Of a DNA stretch of 24,955 nt, positions 7,225-22,182 are shown one piece after another. The stretch spans positions 1 to 24,955 of the IMG/VR virus record IMGVR_UViG_3300033067_000776; one strand, 5' to 3'. Positions within the stretch are counted from its first letter, which is position 1. Each line of letters starts with the position of its first letter. Both the position numbers and the translations under genes were made by a program. Source of the DNA: a virus (taxonomy: Duplodnaviria > Caudoviricetes). The notes beneath the pieces are model-generated. The model saw only the letters and a program-made list of their open reading frames with translations. It did no database searches and was not told the DNA's origin.

Positions 7225-7569
7225 TTGAAGGAAATACAAACATATTGGGAAGACCCAAAAGAATTAAAAGTAGTAGTACCAGTAAAAAAACAAAAGAAAA
7301 CTACTGTTATATTTCCACTTCCGGGGCATAGAGTTTTTGAACTAAACCTATCAACTGGTATTATTAATGAGGTTAAGCCCGAAAAACAAAACCTATCATT
7401 AGTGCCAGAGATTGATATTCGGACGGGGTTAGTATCGGGTTCAATAACACAAAAAAGAGGGAGTATAAAAATGAAAGAAGGTTGTATTTATACAACAGCA
7501 CTTAATGCTAAAAACGCAGATAAACATTTTCACAGAATCTTAAATAAAACATATAAAACTAAAAAATGA
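7225..7569 (+). CDS. Hypothetical phage protein
   Basis: 114 aa, TTG start, PGHRVFELNLSTG...GCIYTTALNAKNADKHF; ATGA overlap with groES. Confidence 0.65.
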   Translation: MKEIQTYWEDPKELKVVVPVKKQKKTTVIFPLPGHRVFELNLSTGIINEVKPEKQNLSLVPEIDIRTGLVSGSITQKRGSIKMKEGCIYTTALNAKNADKHFHRILNKTYKTKK

Positions 7570-7889
7570 ATTACCAAGAGTATCAACCATTAGAGGACAG
7601 GGTTTTAATAAAACCAATTAAAAATACTGAACCGGAAAAAACAGAAAGCGGGATAATAACCGAAATGGCTAAAAAGGAAACAGCAGAAGGTATGGTGGTG
7701 GCATCTGGTGAGGGGTTTGTAGCAAGGGATACAGGGGTGCTTGTTGGGAATGTTCTTAAGAAAGGAGATGTTGTTTTATATGGATTAAACGCTGGTATGC
7801 CACTTGATATACCAAGAGAAGGAGGGGGCAAAGATGAGTGTAGGTTGATGAGGGAAGGCGATGTATTAGCTCTTATAAAAAAATCTTAA
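7566..7889 (+). CDS. groES: Co-chaperonin GroES (Cpn10)
   Basis: QPLEDRVLIKP, mobile loop KTESGII, GMVVASGEG, LKKGDVVLY, LMREGDVLA. Confidence 0.92.
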   Translation: MNYQEYQPLEDRVLIKPIKNTEPEKTESGIITEMAKKETAEGMVVASGEGFVARDTGVLVGNVLKKGDVVLYGLNAGMPLDIPREGGGKDECRLMREGDVLALIKKS

Positions 7890-7908: not shown

Positions 7909-7937
7909 TAATTTAGCATCCAAAGCCTAAACTTTGG
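7909..7937 (+). promoter_or_regulatory. Possible internal promoter (-7-like) and start-codon-masking hairpin
   Basis: TAATTTAG at 7909-7916 (one mismatch to TAnnTTTG); CCAAAG-cctaaa-CTTTGG (7920-7937) covers the TTG start at 7934. Confidence 0.35.
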
Positions 7938-8773
7938 TAAAAACTCCTATAACGCAGGTGCTTTTAACTATTCCAAAAGCACTTCAAGACGAAATCACAC
8001 TTGATTCCGGCTTAAAACTGTACATTAGTCCAGATTATTCAAAAGAATGGCAAGCTGCCGTAACAGCCACGATTGCCGCACTCCCATTAAAAGTTAGTAA
8101 AAAAGACGAGGCCATAATTTCTCAACTTCAAGTTGGGGATGAGGTGGCTATGTCTTATCAGGTAGTTGCAGATTTTGAATTTAGGGGAGATGGCAAGCAG
8201 TTTATGCCTACAACGGAAGATGATAGGTATGTAAAGGAATTTGTTAATGGAAAAGGCGAAACTGTAAGGGTGTATGGACTTGCTAAAAGAAGTGGGTTTA
8301 AGGGGCTTACATGGGTGGCTACTTATCAAAACAAAAAAAGAGAGGTAATTGATGGGATTCAGGGAAGCGAAGAAGAAGTCGAAAAATGGCTTTCCCAGTT
8401 CCCGTTTGGCAAAACAGATATTTATAGTTTTAATAATTTATTTGAATATAATGGTCGGGATTATTGGAAAGCCTACCCAACGGATATTTTTGCAAAGAAG
8501 GTAAAAGGGCATTGGGTAGCGGTTGGAGATAGGGTTTTGTGTAAACCACTTGAAGAAGAAGTTCCAAATGAAATACTACTAAGTATTAATCATAAGGAAA
8601 CGGTAAAAATCAGATACCAAGACAGGGCAGTTGTGGTTAGCGGCGGTAAAAAACTTAACTTAAAAAAGGGGCAAATTGTAAGTTTTGAATCCCGTCACTT
8701 GGAAAAATATAAATTTGACAATAAAGACTATTATTTAATCAACGAAAGGCTTGTTCAGGGGATTTGGAATTAA
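7934..8773 (+). CDS. Tandem GroES-like (two-domain) protein
   Basis: Domain 1 ITLDSGLKLYI...ATIAALP...LQVGDEV...YNGRDYW...DIFA with a long insert; domain 2 AVGDRVLCKP...AVVVSGG...LKKGQIVSF...DNKDYYLINERLVQG; TTG start. Confidence 0.7.
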   Translation: MVKTPITQVLLTIPKALQDEITLDSGLKLYISPDYSKEWQAAVTATIAALPLKVSKKDEAIISQLQVGDEVAMSYQVVADFEFRGDGKQFMPTTEDDRYVKEFVNGKGETVRVYGLAKRSGFKGLTWVATYQNKKREVIDGIQGSEEEVEKWLSQFPFGKTDIYSFNNLFEYNGRDYWKAYPTDIFAKKVKGHWVAVGDRVLCKPLEEEVPNEILLSINHKETVKIRYQDRAVVVSGGKKLNLKKGQIVSFESRHLEKYKFDNKDYYLINERLVQGIWN

Positions 8774-11125: not shown

Positions 11126-11385
11126 TGGCTGCACCAGCAATAACATTAGGGGCGGGGCAAGTATTGATTACAAATTCTACAAGTGTTCTTGGTATTTATT
11201 CCGTTGACAATAAGGTGCAGTTCGGAACAGTAGCTTTGGTTAATGATTTATCAGATAAAGTAACAGTAAATGATTCTGTAATGTATGATAAGGACAAAGT
11301 GCAATCTACATTAATTTATGGAAGCACTTTATACCTTTTAATTGATGAAAAATATATTTCTGGTATAGAAACTGATTTACCATAA
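11125..11385 (+). CDS. Divergent GroES-fold protein
   Basis: 86 aa; LGAGQVLI...SVLGI...QFGTVALV...VTVNDSVMY...YGSTLYLLIDEKYISG follows the Cpn10 strand pattern; TAATG overlaps on both sides. Confidence 0.55.
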   Translation: MAAPAITLGAGQVLITNSTSVLGIYSVDNKVQFGTVALVNDLSDKVTVNDSVMYDKDKVQSTLIYGSTLYLLIDEKYISGIETDLP

Positions 11386-14300
11386 TGCTAATAGAAAAAC
11401 ATTCTTTTGACGGGGGTTGTGACGGCGATTCAAACCAAAGAGAGTTGCCGCCTAATGTTCTATTAAATCTTATGAACGCAAGGGTTGGGGTAACCCAATA
11501 TGGTAGAGATAAAAGAATTGAAAACATACCCGGCACAACCCAAACTACAAATAATAATATCCCTCCTTATGGTACAAATAAATACATAGGAAGTTGTGTA
11601 GATGAAGTAAGAAAGTATATACTTTTTTTTCTGTGTAATACGTTTTCTGACCATGCGATTTACTGTTATGATATTGCAAATGACATAACCTATGGTGTTT
11701 TGTATGACAGTCAGGTTACAGGAGGATTAGGCTTTTCAAATTCATATCGAATAGATAGAAATTGTAAGGTTGTTGGCGATTTGTTATATTGGACAGATAA
11801 TAATAATCAGCCAAGAAGAATTAACTATATCGCAGCAATTAAAACAAATCATCCCTCTTTTTCAACAACAGTTACTCCGTACACCAATCCCATAAGCCAA
11901 TCTGTTATTTCATGGATTAGAAGACCCTATGGGCTTCCAGTTAATGCTACAAAAATAGTGGCAGGCGTTACTACAAATTTTATAAAAACATTTGCAGGGC
12001 AATTTGCATCAGCTCTTATTTATAGAGACGGAGAGCCATCGGTTGTAAGCGTTCCATCTGCTATGATAAATTATAATTTAGAGACAGATACCTATGATGA
12101 TATACAGGTGACATTCCCTCTCGCAGAAATTTTTGACCAAGATGTTCAAATAATACAGTTATTAGTAAGATATGATAACAGCCCGGATTATTTTATTATA
12201 AAGCAATGGAATAAGGCTAATGCAACAGATTTAGCACAAATAAATGCACATAATAGTGGCATTACAAATCTGACTTATAATTTTTACAATGATTATAATG
12301 GAGATGCCTTTGGCAAAGCGGAATCGGTAAAACCTTTTGATAATATTGGGTTGACCGTAAAGACCATTGAATATGCTGATAATAAAATGTTTCAAGCAGG
12401 GTATATAAAGGGGTATAACACACCCACAACAACGTCTTTAAACTTCTCGTTAGTATCCGGTTCGGGAGCTACTGGTTATACGCAAATATGGAAATCATAT
12501 AGCACTTACCAATTAGCAATTCAATTTAGAGATAAATCAAAAAGAAAATGTTCTGTCGTTACAAACTCATCATTAATTGTCACTATACCAGATAGAACCA
12601 TATCTTTTAGTTCTTATACTACTGGAATAAACTGGGCGGTTTCAAACGCATTGGCTACAACGGAAATACCCGACTGGGCTTATTACTATGATATATTAAT
12701 TACAAAAAACCTTCGTACTCGAAACTTTTTTACTGCAAACGGCTTCCCAATCCAATATGCAAAAAAACAACCGGACGGTACATATATTTACCAAAATAAC
12801 TATGATGCTTTTGTAACTGGTATAGCCCTTTCTACAAACTTAATGAGTTCGGATGGTATAGGATATTTATTTACAGAAGGTAGTGGCGATACTGCCAGAA
12901 TTTATTTAGCATCTACTGCAACCGTATATTCTCTTCAAGTAATAGACCAAGATGCACAAAATATAATAGTGCAACCTCAAAACATAGGGAATGGGTTGTC
13001 GTCAGTCGGGGTTAGATATGAAATATATACTCCGTATCAAAAATTAGAGAATGAGCCATTTTACACTACTGGTCAATCCTTTACTATTACAAATCCAACA
13101 ACATCATCAAGGGTTTATTCAACAACATCAGGAATTATAAGCGGAGATGTATATAGGTGGTATGACCAATTATTAGAATTTATGTCTCCAAATAATAAGG
13201 TGAGATGGGATAGTTGGACTAATATTTATGGGGAAGGAAACAAGACTTCTTTGTTGGGGCAGGTAAACAAGATGGATTTTGTTAGTTGGAGTAATACGAA
13301 AATTGAAGGGGCGCAAGTAAATGGCTTGTCAACTTTCGATGCTCTTTCTGAAAAAGCAATATCTGGTATAGGGGGAATAAATAAATTACAGTTAGCTAAT
13401 AAAGTATCGGATTTAGGACAAGGAAACATTATGCTTGCTATTGGGGCAACCGAAATAGCCTCTTTATACATAGGTGAGGTAACCGTACAAGGGGCATCAA
13501 AAACGGCCTATATAGCAGAATCCGAAAGGGTAATAGGCTCTGTAAATGTATTAAATGGTAGTTATGGAACAATAAACCCGGAGAGTGTTGTTCAGTACTT
13601 AGGAATGGTTTTCGGATTTGATGCGAATAATGGAGTAATTTGGCAATATTCCCCCGCTGGCTTAGAGCCGGTAAGCAGGTACAAAATGACCCGTTTTTTC
13701 CAACAGTATGCAAAGGGATATTTAGCATCTTCAACAGGAAATTTGGATAATATCAATGGATTCCACCATATCCCATTTGGAATAGACCCATTTCATAAAG
13801 AACTTGTTTGTGGACTTCCCGGACTCATCTATTCAAACTATGCAAATACACTACCAAGCTATTCGAGCATTCCCTCTTATGCGACATCAATAATAAACAG
13901 ATTTGATATTTATGACCAGTTGCAAAAAGATATGTGCTATAAGTTTGAGGAAAATAAATGGGGTTCAAGCATGAACTATGGTGCAGAGGGTTACGAAACC
14001 GTAGAAAATGTGATGTATGGATGGAAAAACGGTAGAATGTGGAGTTTTAATACAAATACAACTAATTGGAATACTTTTTTTGGCACACAAGCCCCACTTA
14101 GAGTATGTTTCACAGGGAACATAAACCCCTCCTTGATGAAAGTGTTGAATAATATCGCTATTGAAGGGGATGGAACTATTCCTAATTTCACAGTAGCATT
14201 GACGGCTATACCAAATCAACAAATAACCGACCTTTCTTCCGCAGATACGGAAGTGGGGTCAACAGTGTTAAAATGGATGGTAAACGAAGGCGTAGCAGAG

Positions 14301-14513
14301 GCTTCGTTTTGGGCAGATAGACTATCCCCTAATAATAGTATAGGTGGTACGGCTGAACAAAAATTATTTACGGGCGACCCGTTAAGAGATTTTAGTATAT
14401 TTGTAATGGTAGAATACCAAGCATATACAGGTCTAATGTATGTTAATTATATAAATATTGGGTTTGATGTATCTAAGGGTATGAAAAACCTTATTAATGT
14501 AGTTAACTCATAA
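11385..14513 (+). CDS. Tail stabilisation/muzzle protein (P22 gp10-like, crAss muzzle-like)
   Basis: 1042 aa; N-terminal FDGGCDGDSNQRELPPNVLLNLMNAR, LLYWTDNNNQPRRIN, YGTINPESV; beta-propeller-like composition; follows the ring proteins. Confidence 0.75.
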   Translation: MLIEKHSFDGGCDGDSNQRELPPNVLLNLMNARVGVTQYGRDKRIENIPGTTQTTNNNIPPYGTNKYIGSCVDEVRKYILFFLCNTFSDHAIYCYDIANDITYGVLYDSQVTGGLGFSNSYRIDRNCKVVGDLLYWTDNNNQPRRINYIAAIKTNHPSFSTTVTPYTNPISQSVISWIRRPYGLPVNATKIVAGVTTNFIKTFAGQFASALIYRDGEPSVVSVPSAMINYNLETDTYDDIQVTFPLAEIFDQDVQIIQLLVRYDNSPDYFIIKQWNKANATDLAQINAHNSGITNLTYNFYNDYNGDAFGKAESVKPFDNIGLTVKTIEYADNKMFQAGYIKGYNTPTTTSLNFSLVSGSGATGYTQIWKSYSTYQLAIQFRDKSKRKCSVVTNSSLIVTIPDRTISFSSYTTGINWAVSNALATTEIPDWAYYYDILITKNLRTRNFFTANGFPIQYAKKQPDGTYIYQNNYDAFVTGIALSTNLMSSDGIGYLFTEGSGDTARIYLASTATVYSLQVIDQDAQNIIVQPQNIGNGLSSVGVRYEIYTPYQKLENEPFYTTGQSFTITNPTTSSRVYSTTSGIISGDVYRWYDQLLEFMSPNNKVRWDSWTNIYGEGNKTSLLGQVNKMDFVSWSNTKIEGAQVNGLSTFDALSEKAISGIGGINKLQLANKVSDLGQGNIMLAIGATEIASLYIGEVTVQGASKTAYIAESERVIGSVNVLNGSYGTINPESVVQYLGMVFGFDANNGVIWQYSPAGLEPVSRYKMTRFFQQYAKGYLASSTGNLDNINGFHHIPFGIDPFHKELVCGLPGLIYSNYANTLPSYSSIPSYATSIINRFDIYDQLQKDMCYKFEENKWGSSMNYGAEGYETVENVMYGWKNGRMWSFNTNTTNWNTFFGTQAPLRVCFTGNINPSLMKVLNNIAIEGDGTIPNFTVALTAIPNQQITDLSSADTEVGSTVLKWMVNEGVAEASFWADRLSPNNSIGGTAEQKLFTGDPLRDFSIFVMVEYQAYTGLMYVNYINIGFDVSKGMKNLINVVNS

Positions 14514-15134: not shown

Positions 15135-16568
15135 ATGCCACTCGATTTACATGGTTTTTATCCCAATAACGCTCCAAACCAATCTCTATTTAAAATAGCT
15201 GATACTTTGCAGGATAACACAAGGTATAAGCAAGAGGTAGATTATAGAAATCAAAAAGAAAAAGAGGCAAAGGCACAACAAAATAGACTTTTAAATCTTA
15301 GGGAAATAGACCAAGATACTGATTTGGCTAAATTTAAAACAGGAGAGCAAAGGATAGATGATTATACGCAAAAAGAATTAGCCAGTATTAAAAATAAGGC
15401 TCTTACGGAATATGTTGACCTTGACCCCGTAGAAGCAGAATATAAGCTATCTAATGATATGCAACAATTAATAAATTGGCATGGTGCTGTAAAATCAAAT
15501 ATAGATAAAATAAAAGAAGGGCTATCTGGATTTCAAAAAACATACTCTAATACAAACCCTCAAAAAGCACATGAACTTGCTTACTTAGAATTAGCTAATG
15601 ATTTTTTAGAAAAGGATGCTAATGGAAGTGTAATAAGAAGAGACCCTTCGTTAGTAAAATCAAGAGATTACATATCCGACCTAAATACTACTGAAAAATT
15701 AAGTCAAATCGTAGATGATGTGACCCCATTCTCAAAGTATATTCAATCTTTTAAGCCTCAAAAAAGTGGCGCAAAGGAATACACAAATAAAAATGGGTAT
15801 GCCGTAAAGCATGGATATACAGCCGAGGTAACCCCATTTTCAGAAATTGAAATAAATGAGGATGGGAAACCAATTGGGGTAAAATTAAAATCAGAAGACT
15901 TTAATTATAGGGATGGTGAAACCTTAAAAATGTTGCCAGAAAGCCAATTTGAACAAATGATGCAAGTTCCAGAAGTAAGGGCTTCAATAATTGGGATGTG
16001 GGCAAAGAACAAAGCTGATTTTGAATCTCAAACGGGTTCAAAAATAACTCCTGCTAACGAAGATAAAATGTTGCGTGGATTTTTATATGATGAAATAAAA
16101 AATAACAATCTTGACCAGCATTTTTTCAAACCAGATGATGCGGTAATAACGCCAAGAATAACCATAAATAATAATACCGGAAACCGTAGCCAAGATAGTA
16201 AAATAGACCTCACAGAGTATCCCGATGCGCCAAGCGGGGGCAAAGACATAACAGCATTAATGCAAGGGGTTGATGTAGTTAGTTTGGTTACGGGTAAAAA
16301 ATTTGCAGCCGAAAAAATAATTTACAACCCTTCCACACAAAGGATAACTGTTACCGACCCGGTTAGTCATAAGCCAGAAGAAATGAGTTTAACGACATTT
16401 ATTCAAAATGCAAAACCACAGAATCCGGCATCTGATATTAAGTTTTTGCAAGGGTTAAGAAATCCAATTACAGGAGCAAAGCCACAGCAGCCAAAGGATA
16501 TTAAGAATACAAGAGTAGCTCCGAAGTACAAAGGATTAGATAAAAACGGAAACCCAATATTTGAATAA
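15135..16568 (+). CDS. Putative internal virion/ejection protein
   Basis: 477 aa, helical N-terminal half, no cysteine, between the pilot-like gene and the large cargo gene. Confidence 0.5.
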   Translation: MPLDLHGFYPNNAPNQSLFKIADTLQDNTRYKQEVDYRNQKEKEAKAQQNRLLNLREIDQDTDLAKFKTGEQRIDDYTQKELASIKNKALTEYVDLDPVEAEYKLSNDMQQLINWHGAVKSNIDKIKEGLSGFQKTYSNTNPQKAHELAYLELANDFLEKDANGSVIRRDPSLVKSRDYISDLNTTEKLSQIVDDVTPFSKYIQSFKPQKSGAKEYTNKNGYAVKHGYTAEVTPFSEIEINEDGKPIGVKLKSEDFNYRDGETLKMLPESQFEQMMQVPEVRASIIGMWAKNKADFESQTGSKITPANEDKMLRGFLYDEIKNNNLDQHFFKPDDAVITPRITINNNTGNRSQDSKIDLTEYPDAPSGGKDITALMQGVDVVSLVTGKKFAAEKIIYNPSTQRITVTDPVSHKPEEMSLTTFIQNAKPQNPASDIKFLQGLRNPITGAKPQQPKDIKNTRVAPKYKGLDKNGNPIFE

Positions 16569-19500
16569 TGCCTGAATTAACCCCACAACAAAAAGCACAA
16601 TTAGATAGCAATATCAGGGCTATGCTTAGTAAGGGAGCAAGTCAGGATGATGTTATTGCCTACTCAAAAGATTTCAGAAATAAATACGATGTTGCAATCG
16701 TTGAGCCATCAGTAAAAAAAAAAGTTGGCATATTCGCCTCTGGGGCAAAATTACGGACTTCTTCTCCCGCTACCAGTTCCCTCTTAAATGGAGGGGGTGG
16801 AGAAGGGGGTGAGACAGTTCAAAGAGGCATTGTTTCAAAATCTTTAGGAATAGACAAGTCTCCTGAATATGATATTGCAGATTTGAATGAACTTCTTTCT
16901 AAAAGAGAAAAACTTAATAAGTCTCCCATACCTGAATATGTTTCAAAAAATGTAGAAGGGGATTTTTTGGGAACAACAAAAAGAGTAAAAGAAAAAAATC
17001 CACAGTACGATAGCTATAAGTCTGAATTAGCTGACATTAATTCTCAAATAGAAGATAAGACCATGAAATCTTCTAAGCATCTTGGACTTGACCCTGACAT
17101 TGCTAATAAAGTAATACAGGACTTTCCAAATGAAACTAATCTTAATAATTTAAAACAAAGAGCATCTCTTATTAATGAAAATCCAATTCAGTACGAAAGG
17201 ATTTCAGCAGCCCACCAAAATCAGCAAAAGATAGCAGAGGTAGCAGGAAACCATGTAGCTAATCAGTACAATGATTTAAACCAGCATGGTGGTACTTACA
17301 TTGGCTTGGTTCAAAACCTGCCAGAGCAGATTGATATTATTAATCAAAACCTGACAGGTAAAGACAGAGACAGGGCTATTGAGAACCTTCGCATATCAAG
17401 CGGACATAATCTTAATGCTACCGTTCCTGATATACAATATGAGTATGAACATTCAGGACTGAAAGAAAAAGGAATAGATGCTGACCAATATGCGGGGTTG
17501 CTTACACTGAAATATTTTAGTCCTAAAAAATATGAGCAAGCAGTTAAGTTTATTAATCAGGGGGTTGAAAAATTATACGAACACTCAATAGATTTTCAGG
17601 GCGGCGGCATGGCTCCAGGTGGATTAGGCGCTTCACATACTTACGAAAATACAGACCCGACAGGGGGTAGGTTATCTCAAAAAACAATTTCAGAACAAAC
17701 ACAACAGGAACAAACCTTGCATGAATTACTTTCTATTGGAAGGAATAACGCTAAAGATTACCTGATAGAACACAACAACTCCTTAAACAAACAATATTCA
17801 GAAGCAACAACACAGGAGCAGCAAGATGCTATTGCAGCAAAGTCATTGCAGAATGTTATGGCGTTAAAATCAATAGCACAAAATGAACAGCATGATGCAG
17901 AAAGATTTCCACTCCAACATAAGATGCAGTTGGAGCAAATGGCCAAAGAATTAACACAGGAAAAGGGAGAGAATGTTATTAATTACTTTTTTAGAAAACT
18001 TGCCGAGGGTGCAGATGCTCCAAGAAAATCATTTGAAAACTTTGCAACAGCAACATTTGGAGGACGTAAATCCAATACAGAACTTCAAAGAAGGAGAGGA
18101 GGGGAATCTATTATAGAACAACAGGATGAAATATTGCCATCTTCATACGGTGCAAACACAATGCAGAGTTTACCTGTTTTTTCTAAAGACACAAAGGAAG
18201 CAGTTCAAAAAATAAAGGAAGACAAGTCCTTATCCTCTTTTGAGAAGAAAGAAAAGATACAGGATTTAGCAGATGATGTTATTAAAAACAATAAAGTTGA
18301 CTGGGTAACGAATCCTGAATTTGGAAAAACAAAGAACCTTTTCAGTCTGGCTACTCTTTACGGCAATGCAAATATGTTAGCTGGATTATCAGAACTTGCG
18401 CTTGAAACAGTAGGGCTTAAAGGTTTGGGGGCTGGTAAGTTTTTAAGTGCAGGACTTCCAATGTATGTAATGGAAGAACAAAATCAGTATAAGGAAGCGG
18501 TAAGTAAGGGGCTTTCAAATCCAGAAGAATATGCCGTTGCAAATGCACTACCCATGTTTTTACTTGCATCCGGTGTATCTCAATTAGATGTTGCAAAAAG
18601 AGCATTGGGTGGTACAGAGGCGGCAAAGGTTTTGGAGAACATGACTGAAACAGAGTGGGCTAATATAGCCAGTAAAAATTCAAGAAGGATAAGTGCTATA
18701 AAAAATTCGTTAGGCAAGACATTACATTCATCCTCGGACTTATTGTTAAGGTTTGGAGTTGCGCCCCAAGTTGCACAGGCATTTATCAAGCAAGGTATGT
18801 TTGATGATAGCAGGACGGTAGGTGATGCTATTGATGAATCGGTAAAAAATCTCGGTAACTCTATAATAGATGCAGGTGGATTACTGTTATTGACAGGTGT
18901 AAAAAATTATAAAGAAGTTTCTCCAACACTAAAGGCTTCTATCTGGAATATATCCCAACACCCTGAATTATCAGTTAAAGAAATAATAGATCAGGTTGAG
19001 CAAAAACAAATAACACAGGAGGTTGCTGATAGCAGGATAAAAACGATAAAACAGATTGAAGGGATAATAAATGAAATCCCAACACACAATAAAAAGAACC
19101 AGCTTTTAACGGACAGGCAGCGAATGGATTTATTGGTAACTAAGTTACTTAAAGACGGAGGGGATAAAAAAGCTGAAAATGAAATCTTATCAAAAAAACA
19201 AGATGAAGTAGTTCCTGAAAAACCAGATGAATTAAAAGAGATAGCCGACCAAGCCTTAAATAAAGTGCCGACAGAAGGCATTACAGATGAAATGAATCTG
19301 CAAGCGGCTATTAAAACTTATGGTAAGGATAAAGTAAAAGAAGCTATTGAAGCAAGCCTTCCATTGGAATTAAAAAAGAATGAAGATGAATTAGCTTCAA
19401 TCGAAAATCCAAAGCAGGGAGATATTGACTTCCATAATGAGCAAGCACAGGAAATAAAATCAAAACATGAAGCTGCTTTAAAAGAACTGGCAGATGAAAA

Positions 19501-20524
19501 TACACCGGATGAAGTAGCATCAGGGGTATCTGGTAGTGCATTGAAAGATGTGGATTTAGTAAAAGATAATGGTAAAAAAATAATATCAAAGGCTTTAGGG
19601 GAAAATGGAAATGATGCTTCTGATTTTAAGAATACTAAAGTAGTTGATGATAATGGCAAGCCAAAGCAAGTATTTCATGGCACTTGGGCGGATGCGCCTT
19701 TTGAGGATTTTAAAGAAGGGGATACTTATTTCACAGATAACTACGATACGGCTAAAATGTTTGGCAGCAATAGAGAAGGCGGGGTTGATACAGAGAATAT
19801 GGATATGCAGGGCAAGCCATTTGTAATGGAAGTTACAGATACGAAGGGGAAGAAGCATAAAATGGTTATTGCCAATACCGACATGGCTTCTATTTTTTCA
19901 GATTTACAATACGATGTATCACCTGTTGGAGAGTGGGGTAAAGAAGACTTAAATGCTTTTGATGCAAGCTCAATAGAACACCACTTCGGTATCCCTGAAA
20001 ATAAAATAAAATCGTTTAAGATAGAGGAAAGGCAAGTTGGTAAAAATGTTGATGATTTTGGTGTATCAAGACATTATATAAATTTAGAAAACCCTTTGAT
20101 AATAGATGCTAAAGGCGACATTTGGAATGGTTCAAAAGGCGGTGATATTCAGGGTAAAATAAACGAAGCAAGGGAAAGCGGAAAACATGATGGAGTTATA
20201 GTTAAAAATATAGTTGAAGGCGGTTTAGGCAATCCAGACACAAAGCCCACCACTACCTATGTTGTATTCAACAAAAATCCCAAAGCCCCCACCCAATACA
20301 CAGAAGCAGCAACACCAAAAGAGCAAGCCCAAAAAATAGCAGACCTAACAGAGAAAAGAGATAGGGATATAGCAGTAGCGAGTAAGCCGGAAATTAAGAT
20401 GGAATTTGTGCCAGCAAAAGATTTAGTGGATAGCAAAGACCCCGTAAATAACAAGAATTTACACAACGATATAAAAGACCGATTTAAAAAATTAAAAGAA
20501 ATCTTAGATTGCTTACATGGCTAA
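16568..20524 (+). CDS. Large internal virion/ejection protein with C-terminal ART-PolyVal-like ADP-ribosyltransferase domain
   Basis: 1318 aa; hydrophobic Gly/Ala helices at about 18340-18900; residues ~1019-1235 KVVDDNGKPKQVFHGT...YFTDN...A...YINLENP...HDGVIVKNIVE...YVVFN. Confidence 0.7.
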   Translation: MPELTPQQKAQLDSNIRAMLSKGASQDDVIAYSKDFRNKYDVAIVEPSVKKKVGIFASGAKLRTSSPATSSLLNGGGGEGGETVQRGIVSKSLGIDKSPEYDIADLNELLSKREKLNKSPIPEYVSKNVEGDFLGTTKRVKEKNPQYDSYKSELADINSQIEDKTMKSSKHLGLDPDIANKVIQDFPNETNLNNLKQRASLINENPIQYERISAAHQNQQKIAEVAGNHVANQYNDLNQHGGTYIGLVQNLPEQIDIINQNLTGKDRDRAIENLRISSGHNLNATVPDIQYEYEHSGLKEKGIDADQYAGLLTLKYFSPKKYEQAVKFINQGVEKLYEHSIDFQGGGMAPGGLGASHTYENTDPTGGRLSQKTISEQTQQEQTLHELLSIGRNNAKDYLIEHNNSLNKQYSEATTQEQQDAIAAKSLQNVMALKSIAQNEQHDAERFPLQHKMQLEQMAKELTQEKGENVINYFFRKLAEGADAPRKSFENFATATFGGRKSNTELQRRRGGESIIEQQDEILPSSYGANTMQSLPVFSKDTKEAVQKIKEDKSLSSFEKKEKIQDLADDVIKNNKVDWVTNPEFGKTKNLFSLATLYGNANMLAGLSELALETVGLKGLGAGKFLSAGLPMYVMEEQNQYKEAVSKGLSNPEEYAVANALPMFLLASGVSQLDVAKRALGGTEAAKVLENMTETEWANIASKNSRRISAIKNSLGKTLHSSSDLLLRFGVAPQVAQAFIKQGMFDDSRTVGDAIDESVKNLGNSIIDAGGLLLLTGVKNYKEVSPTLKASIWNISQHPELSVKEIIDQVEQKQITQEVADSRIKTIKQIEGIINEIPTHNKKNQLLTDRQRMDLLVTKLLKDGGDKKAENEILSKKQDEVVPEKPDELKEIADQALNKVPTEGITDEMNLQAAIKTYGKDKVKEAIEASLPLELKKNEDELASIENPKQGDIDFHNEQAQEIKSKHEAALKELADENTPDEVASGVSGSALKDVDLVKDNGKKIISKALGENGNDASDFKNTKVVDDNGKPKQVFHGTWADAPFEDFKEGDTYFTDNYDTAKMFGSNREGGVDTENMDMQGKPFVMEVTDTKGKKHKMVIANTDMASIFSDLQYDVSPVGEWGKEDLNAFDASSIEHHFGIPENKIKSFKIEERQVGKNVDDFGVSRHYINLENPLIIDAKGDIWNGSKGGDIQGKINEARESGKHDGVIVKNIVEGGLGNPDTKPTTTYVVFNKNPKAPTQYTEAATPKEQAQKIADLTEKRDRDIAVASKPEIKMEFVPAKDLVDSKDPVNNKNLHNDIKDRFKKLKEILDCLHG
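16714..16812 (+). other. A10 slippery site and -1 frame extension (candidate programmed frameshift or transcriptional slippage)
   Basis: GTA AAA AAA AAA GTT (A10 at 16714-16723); -1 frame reads SWHIRLWGKITDFFSRYQFPLKWRGWRRG then TGA at 16810-16812. Confidence 0.55.
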
Positions 20525-21387: not shown

Positions 21388-22182
21388 ATGAGCCATAAAA
21401 TACAAAGCGAAGAATTAATGGAATTAGCGGTCTCTTTATATAAACAAGATGTTAGCGGAAATAATATTGCTAAAAAATTAGCCGTATCGCCTAATACAGT
21501 TTACAGGATGTTGCACAGTTCTGGTGTTTATGTAGCGGGTAGGACGGAAACTAAGCCTTGTAGAATTTTAGTAAAAGGAGATGTTGCTAATAATATTATA
21601 TCGGATTACGAGAATGGGATGGGGTGGAAGGATTTAGAGAAAAAATATGGGTACAAGCAATACTCTATGAGAGAAGCAGTAAGGAGAAGTGGTACTAAGA
21701 TTAAAGACCACGGGGCGCAAAGGCGAAGAGTTTATAAAAACGAGGAAAAAGAAATAGTAAGATTGTATTGCGAACAGAAATTTAGCCAAGTACAGATTGC
21801 AGCTAAATTAAAAATGGCTCAAACTGTTGTAAGTAGGGTTTTAATAAGTAATGGCGTTTCTACAAACGTAGGTAAAAGGTTAGACCAGCATCATAGTTGG
21901 AAAGGGGGCTTATCTAAAAATGAAGATGGGTATATTTTAATTAGGGACAATTATTTCCCAGAAATGTTGAATAGAAGTGGTTATGTATTAAAACATAGAA
22001 TTGAAATGGCTAAATACTTAAATAGACCTTTAACAAAAAACGAATCAGTGCATCATATTGACGGGGATAAAAATAATAACGACATTAGTAATCTTCAATT
22101 AAGAATAGGCAAGCATGGTGTTGGTGTAACGTATTGTTGTCAAGAGTGTGGTTCTAAAAAATTAAAACCAATGGAATTATAA
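21388..22182 (+). CDS. Free-standing HNH homing endonuclease with three N-terminal HTH repeats
   Basis: WKGG...DGYILI...GYVLKHR...VHHIDGDKNNNDISNLQL; three Y..G.S...IA.KL.....V.R.L...GV-like repeats; C-terminal CQECG. Confidence 0.88.
   Translation: MSHKIQSEELMELAVSLYKQDVSGNNIAKKLAVSPNTVYRMLHSSGVYVAGRTETKPCRILVKGDVANNIISDYENGMGWKDLEKKYGYKQYSMREAVRRSGTKIKDHGAQRRRVYKNEEKEIVRLYCEQKFSQVQIAAKLKMAQTVVSRVLISNGVSTNVGKRLDQHHSWKGGLSKNEDGYILIRDNYFPEMLNRSGYVLKHRIEMAKYLNRPLTKNESVHHIDGDKNNNDISNLQLRIGKHGVGVTYCCQECGSKKLKPMEL

Follow-up and report, generated by a model that had tools for sequence, protein, structure and literature searches.

Several described systems resemble the locus analysed here. According to the accessible text of PMC5009743, Thermus thermophilus dnaX (tau/gamma) carries a run of nine at which A-added transcripts arise, giving a shorter product with a common N-terminus. 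The same text describes potyvirus P3N-PIPO, where a polymerase that slips at a low level on a run of A fuses the N-terminus of the main protein to a hidden overlapping frame, and lambda gpG/gpGT and the T7/T3 capsid extensions, where a phage morphogenesis gene is recoded in a conserved way to yield two products with a common N-terminus. In Citrobacter rodentium tssM1, slippage on A11 results in two lengths of a type VI secretion envelope subunit, and both lengths and their ratio are needed there (PMC4256274, accessible text). Phage T2 agt, a contingency locus, exemplifies frame-shifting A runs within phage genes (bioRxiv 2025.10.21.683753, accessible text). The crAss001 gp45/gp46/gp47 and T7/P22 ejection proteins are encoded by cargo genes behind a muzzle gene, and gp45 has been proposed to insert into the membrane (PMC10172136, accessible text).

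The site reported here differs from each of them. dnaX is a chromosomal replisome gene, whereas the present shift would occur about 50 codons into a phage virion gene and lead into a selected tail of 20-45 residues. Slippage restores the full length of TssM1; here frame 0 is already full length and slippage would give the short form. P3N-PIPO belongs to a plant RNA virus and depends on a viral polymerase and a GA6 site. The lambda, T7 and T3 cases are ribosomal, lie near the 3' end and lengthen a short protein, while here a giant protein would be truncated near the 5' end. T2 agt is a DNA-level on/off switch, and the accessible text of the preprint reports no selected alternative frame. The likeness to crAss001 cargo comes from gene order, and the word "frameshift" is absent from the main text of PMC10172136. 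Literature searches, in which few subscription papers were covered, found no description of such a site.

Our locus lies in a stretch of 24,955 nucleotides (the window) from a tailed phage (Caudoviricetes; IMG/VR record IMGVR_UViG_3300033067_000776). The features are collected in Table 1. The first A of the A10 run is the last base of codon 49 of the giant gene, and codons 50 to 52 are AAA. A first-pass annotation had singled out this run as the longest homopolymer, followed by a hidden frame, and its letter-level claims were borne out. The next-longest runs in the window have a length of 8, length 9 being absent; codon reading bounds the -1 frame by TGA 16702-16704 and TGA 16810-16812, with no ATG, GTG or TTG; and the 29 residues of the tail include 4 W, 3 F, 1 Y, 7 K/R and 1 D. 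GC content over 16724-16812 is 53.9% (about 54% had been claimed), which only 0.5% of equal-size stretches reach. A AAA AAA is, as stated, an in-frame X XXY YYZ heptamer, a pattern common in the window. Since the upstream TGA shuts the frame, the tail is without an ordinary start of its own. The predicted product has 81 aa with one A gained and 72 aa with one A lost. We hypothesize that RNA polymerase would slip on A10 and lengthen some of the transcripts by one A. Besides the 1318-aa protein, the gene would then encode an isoform of 81 aa in which the same hairpin carries a cationic, aromatic tail.

Table 1. Coordinates of the putative slip site and surrounding features in the window.
Feature	Position	Strand	Basis
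Muzzle-like tail gene, synteny anchor	11385..14513	+	phrog_14478 E 5e-20; weak crAss_MUZ_C; tblastn match to Elemovirus
196-aa small gene of trio, C-terminal Gly-rich hydrophobic segment	14532..15122	+	ORF listing
477-aa medium gene of trio; stop overlaps giant-gene start	15135..16568	+	ORF listing
1318-aa giant gene, likely virion cargo/ejection protein (frame-0 product)	16568..20524	+	third of small-medium-giant trio behind muzzle-like gene
N-terminal two-helix hairpin (helices 6-21, 26-43), common to both predicted products	16568..16696	+	AlphaFold model mean pLDDT 80; conserved columns
Upstream TGA shutting -1 frame	16702..16704	+	frame reading
A10 putative slip site	16714..16723	+	letter count; A9-A11 in 17/18 homologous loci
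-1 frame tail, 29 residues + TGA	16723..16812	+	net charge +6, 8 aromatics; completes predicted 81-aa isoform
Weak ART-PolyVal match, residues 1027-1087 of giant protein	19646..19828	+	Pfam E 3.8e-4

The first-pass annotation had named the giant gene a large ejection protein. The virion part of this label is made likely by N-domain homology to Pachyviridae giant proteins (the N-domain profile matches Gundel_1 gp074 and phi13:2 gp126) and by the positional counterpart phi18:3 gp123, annotated in GenBank from MS/MS, the window protein being tied to this group through its N-domain only. Ejection into the host we infer from gene order and, by analogy, from PMC10172136. A motif similar to the C-terminal one of the medium gene is found in 12 of 18 loci. 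For the small gene, tblastn against cultured phages gave no useful match and its equivalence there is one of position. Fold and PDB searches with the hairpin returned generic matches only (best ESM Atlas score 0.83, uninformative). The ART-PolyVal (PF18760) match scores 21.7 bits against a gathering cut-off of 31.2 and is thus weak; the single-sequence structure model of this region (pLDDT 49) was too poor for a fold search. It lies within a swappable segment, P0002 being 98.6% identical across residues 1-1013 and divergent in the ART part.

Further information was obtained from homologous loci, picked by N-domain homology and independently of run presence. Of 18 distinct loci, 17 have A9-A11 behind the N-terminal hairpin. 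False matches (L011, L020, L060), a locus that stops short of the site (L010), repeat contigs or identical sites (L008, L009, L013, L026/L059, L061, L064) and re-fetched loci were left out of the counts. As the first-pass annotation had anticipated for homologues, AAG interrupts none of the 17 runs, and just one of the 17 tails is shorter than 19 residues. Given the codon usage of each gene, the joint probability that all Lys codons of the runs are AAA is 1.3e-12 (the loci are not independent), and these all-AAA runs include four genes whose AAA share is 0.21-0.35. The rest of 20 giant genes (93,145 nt) holds no run of at least 9 A, and none of its 9 other KKK is all-AAA. Among long homologues the Lys motif occurs in 40 of 45, where the downstream linker has 31% Ser+Gly, versus 10% in the five without it (p 0.002). 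The site is missing from L002 and from 5 of the 45 long homologues, and is therefore dispensable in some lineages. Prophage homologues numbered 0 of 28 stretches and 0 of 17 pattern matches in genome contigs; a locus search with the single window sequence gave no matches, and tblastn of the N-domain against cultured phages nothing useful.

Selection on the -1 frame was assessed against synonymous shuffling with frame-0 residues fixed. Over the 17 loci, the summed tail length is 474 versus 250±39 and the aromatics are 108 versus 75±6, values reached by 0 of 3000 shuffles. Right behind the run, stop avoidance has z -5.1 and aromatic excess z +5.6, and 15 control offsets stay at |z| ≤2.2; the signal is limited to the first 20-30 codons. 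With a single locus drawn from each of 9 clusters, four draws under a context-aware null gave z between -3.0 and -4.3 for stops and between 3.1 and 4.4 for aromatics. The +1 frame past the run is also short of stops (z -3.0), as it is at control offsets. Selection on an overlapping frame, which the first-pass annotation had read from the window alone, thus holds across the family at about 5 SD and does not from the window by itself: its tail is within chance (p = 0.18 for length, 0.19 for aromatics) and is likewise non-significant under the context-aware null. Its proposed helical periodicity did not stand, as the helical moment is not above that of residue shuffles (p = 0.34), nor did an amphipathic helix common to the tails (p<0.05 in 0 of 18). 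Strand periodicity exceeds shuffles in 0 of 18 tails, Arg is not enriched in the 17 loci (63 versus 65 expected), and family-wide the -1 alignment score beats frame 0 in just 86 of 171 pairs. What the tails have in common is positive charge and aromatic content. Judged from these sequence comparisons, the predicted short product is very probably real and under selection.

In cultured Bacteroidota podophages, chosen by synteny, the run is at the same place in all nine records examined. In five cultured lineages the summed tail length is 164 versus 48.5±19 and the aromatics 42 versus 27.9±3.6 (shuffle null). Calle_1 and phi38:1 differ by three changes in the tail, all silent in frame 0 and altering two -1 residues. 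Five cultured GenBank records carry A9, which breaks the giant gene into a small ORF and a long ORF. One of them, Panino, was sequenced by Nanopore alone and its run is for that reason likely undercalled. In four Baltivirus/Bacelvirus records as deposited, the frame set by the ATG contains A AAA AAG; a search for independent Baltivirus sequence bearing on A9 versus A10 gave the same four genomes. Elemo records open at the run. A clean A10 spans the junction, and these openings presumably reflect an assembler that cut the circular genome at an extreme k-mer, not length variation. Elemo is not named in PMC7077304. The predicted -1 tail of phi38:1 (P0091) includes the peptides AFGIEFYLWSGSFK and FGWFR; the corresponding peptides for the window phage are ITDFFSR and YQFPLK. 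Raw spectra are public for phi38:1, from free virions as well as from infected Cellulophaga baltica (PXD066074 / MSV000098485), and the proteome methods name only phage and host genome FASTA as the search database; "gp101" is absent from the supplements of PMC13288928.

A scan for a -1 motif gave 24 matches (one on a contig that stops 45 codons on), in every case where a long ORF begins and in the -1 frame of that ORF, behind many unrelated N-termini. At positions free of the scan pattern, W or Y comes next in 20 of 20 sequences, and 17 of the 20 have Y six residues upstream. In the same comparison -1 codons vary at their second base as much as at the third (535 versus 502 differences), which is no textbook pattern. 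One sub-family keeps its -1 motif while the N-terminal domain changes; the window tail is without this motif.

The selected frame could also be a by-product of frame 0. Where a Ser/Gly-rich spacer comes after a KKK linker, the -1 frame acquires W, F and Y and has few stops, an automatic outcome of the genetic code when T-ending codons precede Gly, Ser or Thr; taken singly, the window agrees with the null, and most tails do not align. This we consider improbable, as the null that holds frame-0 residues fails by about 5 SD, other KKK are never all-AAA, run-less linkers are not Ser/Gly-rich and the -1 motif outlives its own N-terminal domain. A run that mainly cuts giant-protein output, or that is a DNA or antisense-terminator signal, with a tail that merely disposes of the truncated product, is more improbable still. 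Slippage would reduce full-length yield, and TssM depends on the product ratio (PMC4256274, accessible text), but disposal predicts early stops and stops are avoided instead. Promoter or terminator matches are absent in the window, and an adjacent antisense hairpin of at most -8 kcal/mol is found in 4 of 19 loci, the window not among them. The run could otherwise act at the DNA level: replication slippage would silence the giant protein in part of the progeny, whose genomes would be the source of the short product. Phage A-run contingency loci are known (bioRxiv 2025.10.21.683753, accessible text), A9 breaks the gene in the five cultured records, and short called proteins in protein collections resemble shifted longer ones (P0014/P0037, P0016/P0015, P0027/P0026, P0057 and P0023, the last with no DNA placement found; P0013 is +1-like), from assemblies of unspecified type. 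On the other hand, the T2 locus rate of 7e-4 (same preprint, accessible text) is low for steady selection on a frame of 25-30 codons, all 20 non-isolate motif matches are in frame, and undercalling is likely in Panino. Moreover, contigs from five of eight sequencing runs (X1-X5) hold an indel-free copy of the site and no length variant of the window phage, with the qualification that contigs drop rare variants, X1 is possibly the source run, and X6, X7 and X17 have no cover of the site. The one RNA run covered by the analysis yielded no contig at this locus. We regard a contingency locus as quite unlikely, slightly less so than a by-product.

Ribosomal -1 frameshifting on A AAA AAA would yield the same 81-aa product. 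The heptamer sits in frame, the four Baltivirus/Bacelvirus records named above offer A AAA AAG as deposited, and phage frameshifts without stimulators and sites open to both mechanisms are known (PMC5009743, accessible text). However, seven bases suffice for the ribosome, yet the runs have 9-11 A in 19 of 19 loci and occupy all three codon phases. These loci never use A AAA AAG in frame, although in bacteria it is the stronger frameshift site. Nor is a 3' RNA structure shared (z<-2 in 3 of 19 loci; window z -1.5 to +0.9 over six segments, pseudoknots being outside the model). Run length and phase thus point to slippage of the polymerase more than to the ribosomal heptamer. Bacterial RNA polymerase slips efficiently on 9 A or T (accessible text of PMC5009743 and PMC6260861); that of E. 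coli slips less on A than on T runs (PMC6260861, accessible text), and the host type here would be a Bacteroidota polymerase. Given a real product, the polymerase is probably its origin rather than the ribosome, and we give recoding by polymerase slippage at A10 a probability of about 0.58; the ribosomal reading is unlikely, although it ranks above the other alternatives.

Regarding function, we predict a membrane-binding tail. Through the N-terminus that both forms share, the short one would enter the particle along with the long one, and at ejection the cationic aromatic tail would make contact with the cell envelope; this pairing is the least certain part of the proposal and we advance it tentatively. 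It is tempting to propose, with still more reserve, that in Pachyviridae, Pervagoviridae, Elemovirus and uncultured lineages the slippage-made microprotein could be a fourth ejection component hidden in the giant cargo gene. Its conserved aromatic cationic tail would be the working part, its N-termini would be interchangeable, and the co-packaged protein would serve to break through or seal the envelope of the host.

Cultured model phages, GenBank genes split at the run and the public phi38:1 virion and infection proteome are new here, and the proteome is able to test the isoform. If real, it would be a protein missing from all annotations of a widespread aquatic Bacteroidota phage group, and it would explain why the largest virion gene is split into a small and a long ORF in five GenBank records. 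Productive polymerase slippage would then be a conserved route to tailed-phage particles, beside ribosomal frameshifting.

The first-pass annotation described an A10 run behind the N-terminal domain (N-domain) of the 1318-aa giant virion gene and a 29-residue -1 frame segment, the tail, after it; all its sequence claims on the run and this frame hold on recheck. One extra A in the window yields an 81 aa product, and one A fewer yields 72 aa. The homologue comparison it proposed bears out the run as well. Among 18 distinct loci collected by N-domain search, window included, 17 carry A9-A11 directly 3' of the N-domain, and all Lys codons of the run are AAA, even in four genes with an AAA share of 0.21-0.35 (joint probability 1.3e-12, for loci that are not independent). 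Outside the site, 93,145 nt in 20 such genes contain zero runs of 9 A, and none of their nine other KKK is all-AAA. We therefore conclude that the constraint acts on nucleotides. The Lys motif is present in 40 of 45 long protein homologues, some of which duplicate the loci, and a related contig recurring in three sequencing runs has A11 at the same place. The exception, L002 (6001-6250), is a homologue with a Gln/Pro/Thr-rich linker that lacks the A run and further on has only A6/T6 runs; the site is absent from some lineages.

The genetic code can mislead at this point: a Ser/Gly/Thr linker is enough to put W, F and Y into the -1 frame. Our null kept frame-0 residues fixed and redrew synonymous codons from each gene's own usage. 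The proposed selection on the -1 frame stands for the family and not for the window's tail alone, which does not stand out (p 0.18 and 0.19). The tails of 17 loci add up to a length of 474, where the null gives 250+-39, and hold 108 aromatics, where it gives 75+-6 (both 0/3000); W (p 0.002) and F (p 0.0003) are enriched, R is not. In 20-codon windows, the -1 frame at offset 0 gives z of -5.1 for stops, 5.6 for aromatics and 6.0 for hydrophobics. At offset 10, which overlaps it, the signal is weaker, and the 15 remaining offsets stay within 2.2. The result survives a context-aware null and one-locus-per-cluster sampling. The +1 frame also lacks stops at offset 0 (z -3.0), but three control offsets give -2.6 to -3.2, so this deficit is not peculiar to the site; the +1 tails are anywhere from a few to about 50 residues long. 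Linkers hold 31% Ser+Gly after the Lys motif against 10% in five homologues without it, the pattern to expect if the linker is dictated by the -1 frame.

Cultured records picked by synteny (elemoA_7-9A, Calle_1, phi38:1, Gundel_1, phi13:2, phi19:3, phi18:3, phi46:3 and Panino) all have A9 or A10 near the giant-gene start and a -1 tail of 24-44 residues (9/9). For five cultured lineages, summed tail length is 164 against 48.5+-19 under the null, and aromatics 42 against 27.9+-3.6. A result that counts against the -1 frame is that the three differences between the Calle_1 and phi38:1 tails are all frame-0 silent, and two swap a -1 residue for another hydrophobic one. Five records were deposited with A9, and this splits their giant gene into two annotated ORFs, one short and one long. 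Panino was sequenced by Nanopore only (PMC11590407), and L099 and L100, metagenomic relatives whose N-termini are the same, carry A10 in frame; A9 is thus likely a sequencing undercall. The phi13:2 protein gp126 (87 aa, labelled 'structural protein') consists of the N-domain continued into a third frame.

Several tails share IGFG-x-WFFG. A search for A runs followed by this motif retrieved 24 loci. In all of them the motif is in the -1 frame of an ORF that carries on past the run (in one case for 45 codons, to the end of the contig); the 20 non-isolate loci have a start codon in frame with that ORF. Among the N-termini before it are the window's hairpin, further helical domains and short repeats. 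Since the scan fixes the motif, the evidence comes from the free positions alone. Removal of one duplicate and three near-identical records leaves 20 loci: W or Y follows the motif in 20/20, Y lies six residues upstream in 17/20, and the frame-0 wobble base varies least (366 pairwise differences vs 535 and 502). The window's tail falls outside this sub-family. Run and tail are nearly identical between phi13:2, with a window-type N-domain, and phi19:3, phi18:3 and phi46:3, with an unrelated one. Against a conserved tail sequence, a family-wide tail alignment fails (the -1 score exceeds that of frame 0 in 86/171 pairs). The best pair, L015/L063, chosen post hoc, is identical at 16/21 positions, with frame-0 wobble differences at 4/21 in the tail vs 18/41 in the N-domain (p 0.09). 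The helical periodicity claimed for the tail was not recovered: 0/18 tails exceed residue shuffles in helical or strand moment.

We favour, at a probability of about 0.6 and from sequence, RNA polymerase slippage, in which the enzyme would slip on the run and insert one A. The threshold of 9 fits the RNA:DNA hybrid and known slippage cases (PMC5009743, PMC6260861, PMC4256274). Runs of 9-11 occupy all three codon phases, G follows in 18/19, none of the runs has A AAA AAG in frame, and no downstream RNA structure, promoter or terminator common to the loci was found. Ribosomal shifting is an unlikely substitute. Switching at the DNA level (bioRxiv 2025.10.21.683753) is less probable still. The tail as a by-product with no second product is improbable beside the family-wide -1 frame signal, and pure down-regulation by the run is the least credible reading.

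Short database proteins resembling shifted forms derive from assemblies of unknown type and do not discriminate between slippage and these rivals. P0023 and P0089, 81-aa called proteins on at least two contigs (up to 33.7 kb), join the N-domain to a strongly helical-looking Arg/Phe/Trp tail; a search of viral contigs did not find them, and in their lineage the short form may be the default frame. P0011 shares N-domain and Lys motif with P0040, then runs through a long hydrophobic stretch to its end at 93 aa. Others (P0032, P0033, P0046, P0047, P0059 among them) have apparent signal peptides and 3-6 repeats resembling the N-terminal hairpin.

The window, a 25-kb phage segment, encodes a primase-helicase, GroES-like proteins, virion proteins, a muzzle-like protein matching Elemovirus and then the 196-, 477- and 1318-aa genes; one of the virion genes upstream has a match in Cellulophaga phage Calle_1. 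The N-domain profile finds Gundel_1 gp074 (E 3.5e-6) and phi13:2 gp126 (E 4.8e-7, Z 1000), and does not match the N-termini of phi18:3, Elemo, Calle or Panino; outside the N-domain, pairwise similarity between this trio and the cultured ones is absent. The phi18:3 annotation lists all three genes of its trio, small, medium and giant, as virion proteins on the strength of MS/MS. From links to cultured phages and to crAss001 (PMC10172136), we infer a Bacteroidota host and an ejection role. The N-terminus common to both predicted products is modelled as a two-helix hairpin (pLDDT 80), for which no specific structural relative was found. The end of the medium gene (16529-16568) keeps its motif in most loci, its stop overlapping the giant gene's start. 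Related contigs join or leave the window sequence near 16474-16497 and 16701, which suggests recombination boundaries around the N-domain. P0002 is near-identical to the window's giant protein before residue 1013 and in the last 80 residues, with about 620 different residues in place of the swappable segment; PMC5512222 gives the polyvalent-protein context.

Features of the window and deposited records with a divided giant gene
Feature	Position or accession	Remark
Swappable giant-protein segment	19606-20284	weak ART-PolyVal match
Two adjoining GroES-like genes	7566-7889 and 7934-8773	second with 195-residue N-terminal extension
HTH + HNH endonuclease gene	21388-22182	inserted among tail or fibre genes
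Records with split giant gene	KC821633 66118-66393, KC821608, NC_021794, NC_021792, PP540027	L073, L076, L078, L079, L075

The class of slippage mechanism is already known, and we found no description of conserved slippage near the 5' end of a giant virion gene in the open-access literature. New here are the cultured models, the split GenBank genes, the modularity of tail versus N-terminus and a public test set for the predicted product (PMC13288928). Net charge is positive in all 19 tails (+1 to +8) and aromatic residues are abundant in most, a composition that suggests action at membrane interfaces. Membrane-tethered assembly, lysis help and superinfection exclusion are possible roles for the predicted isoform; the function we tentatively favour is that the short form would be co-packaged and act at the envelope during ejection.
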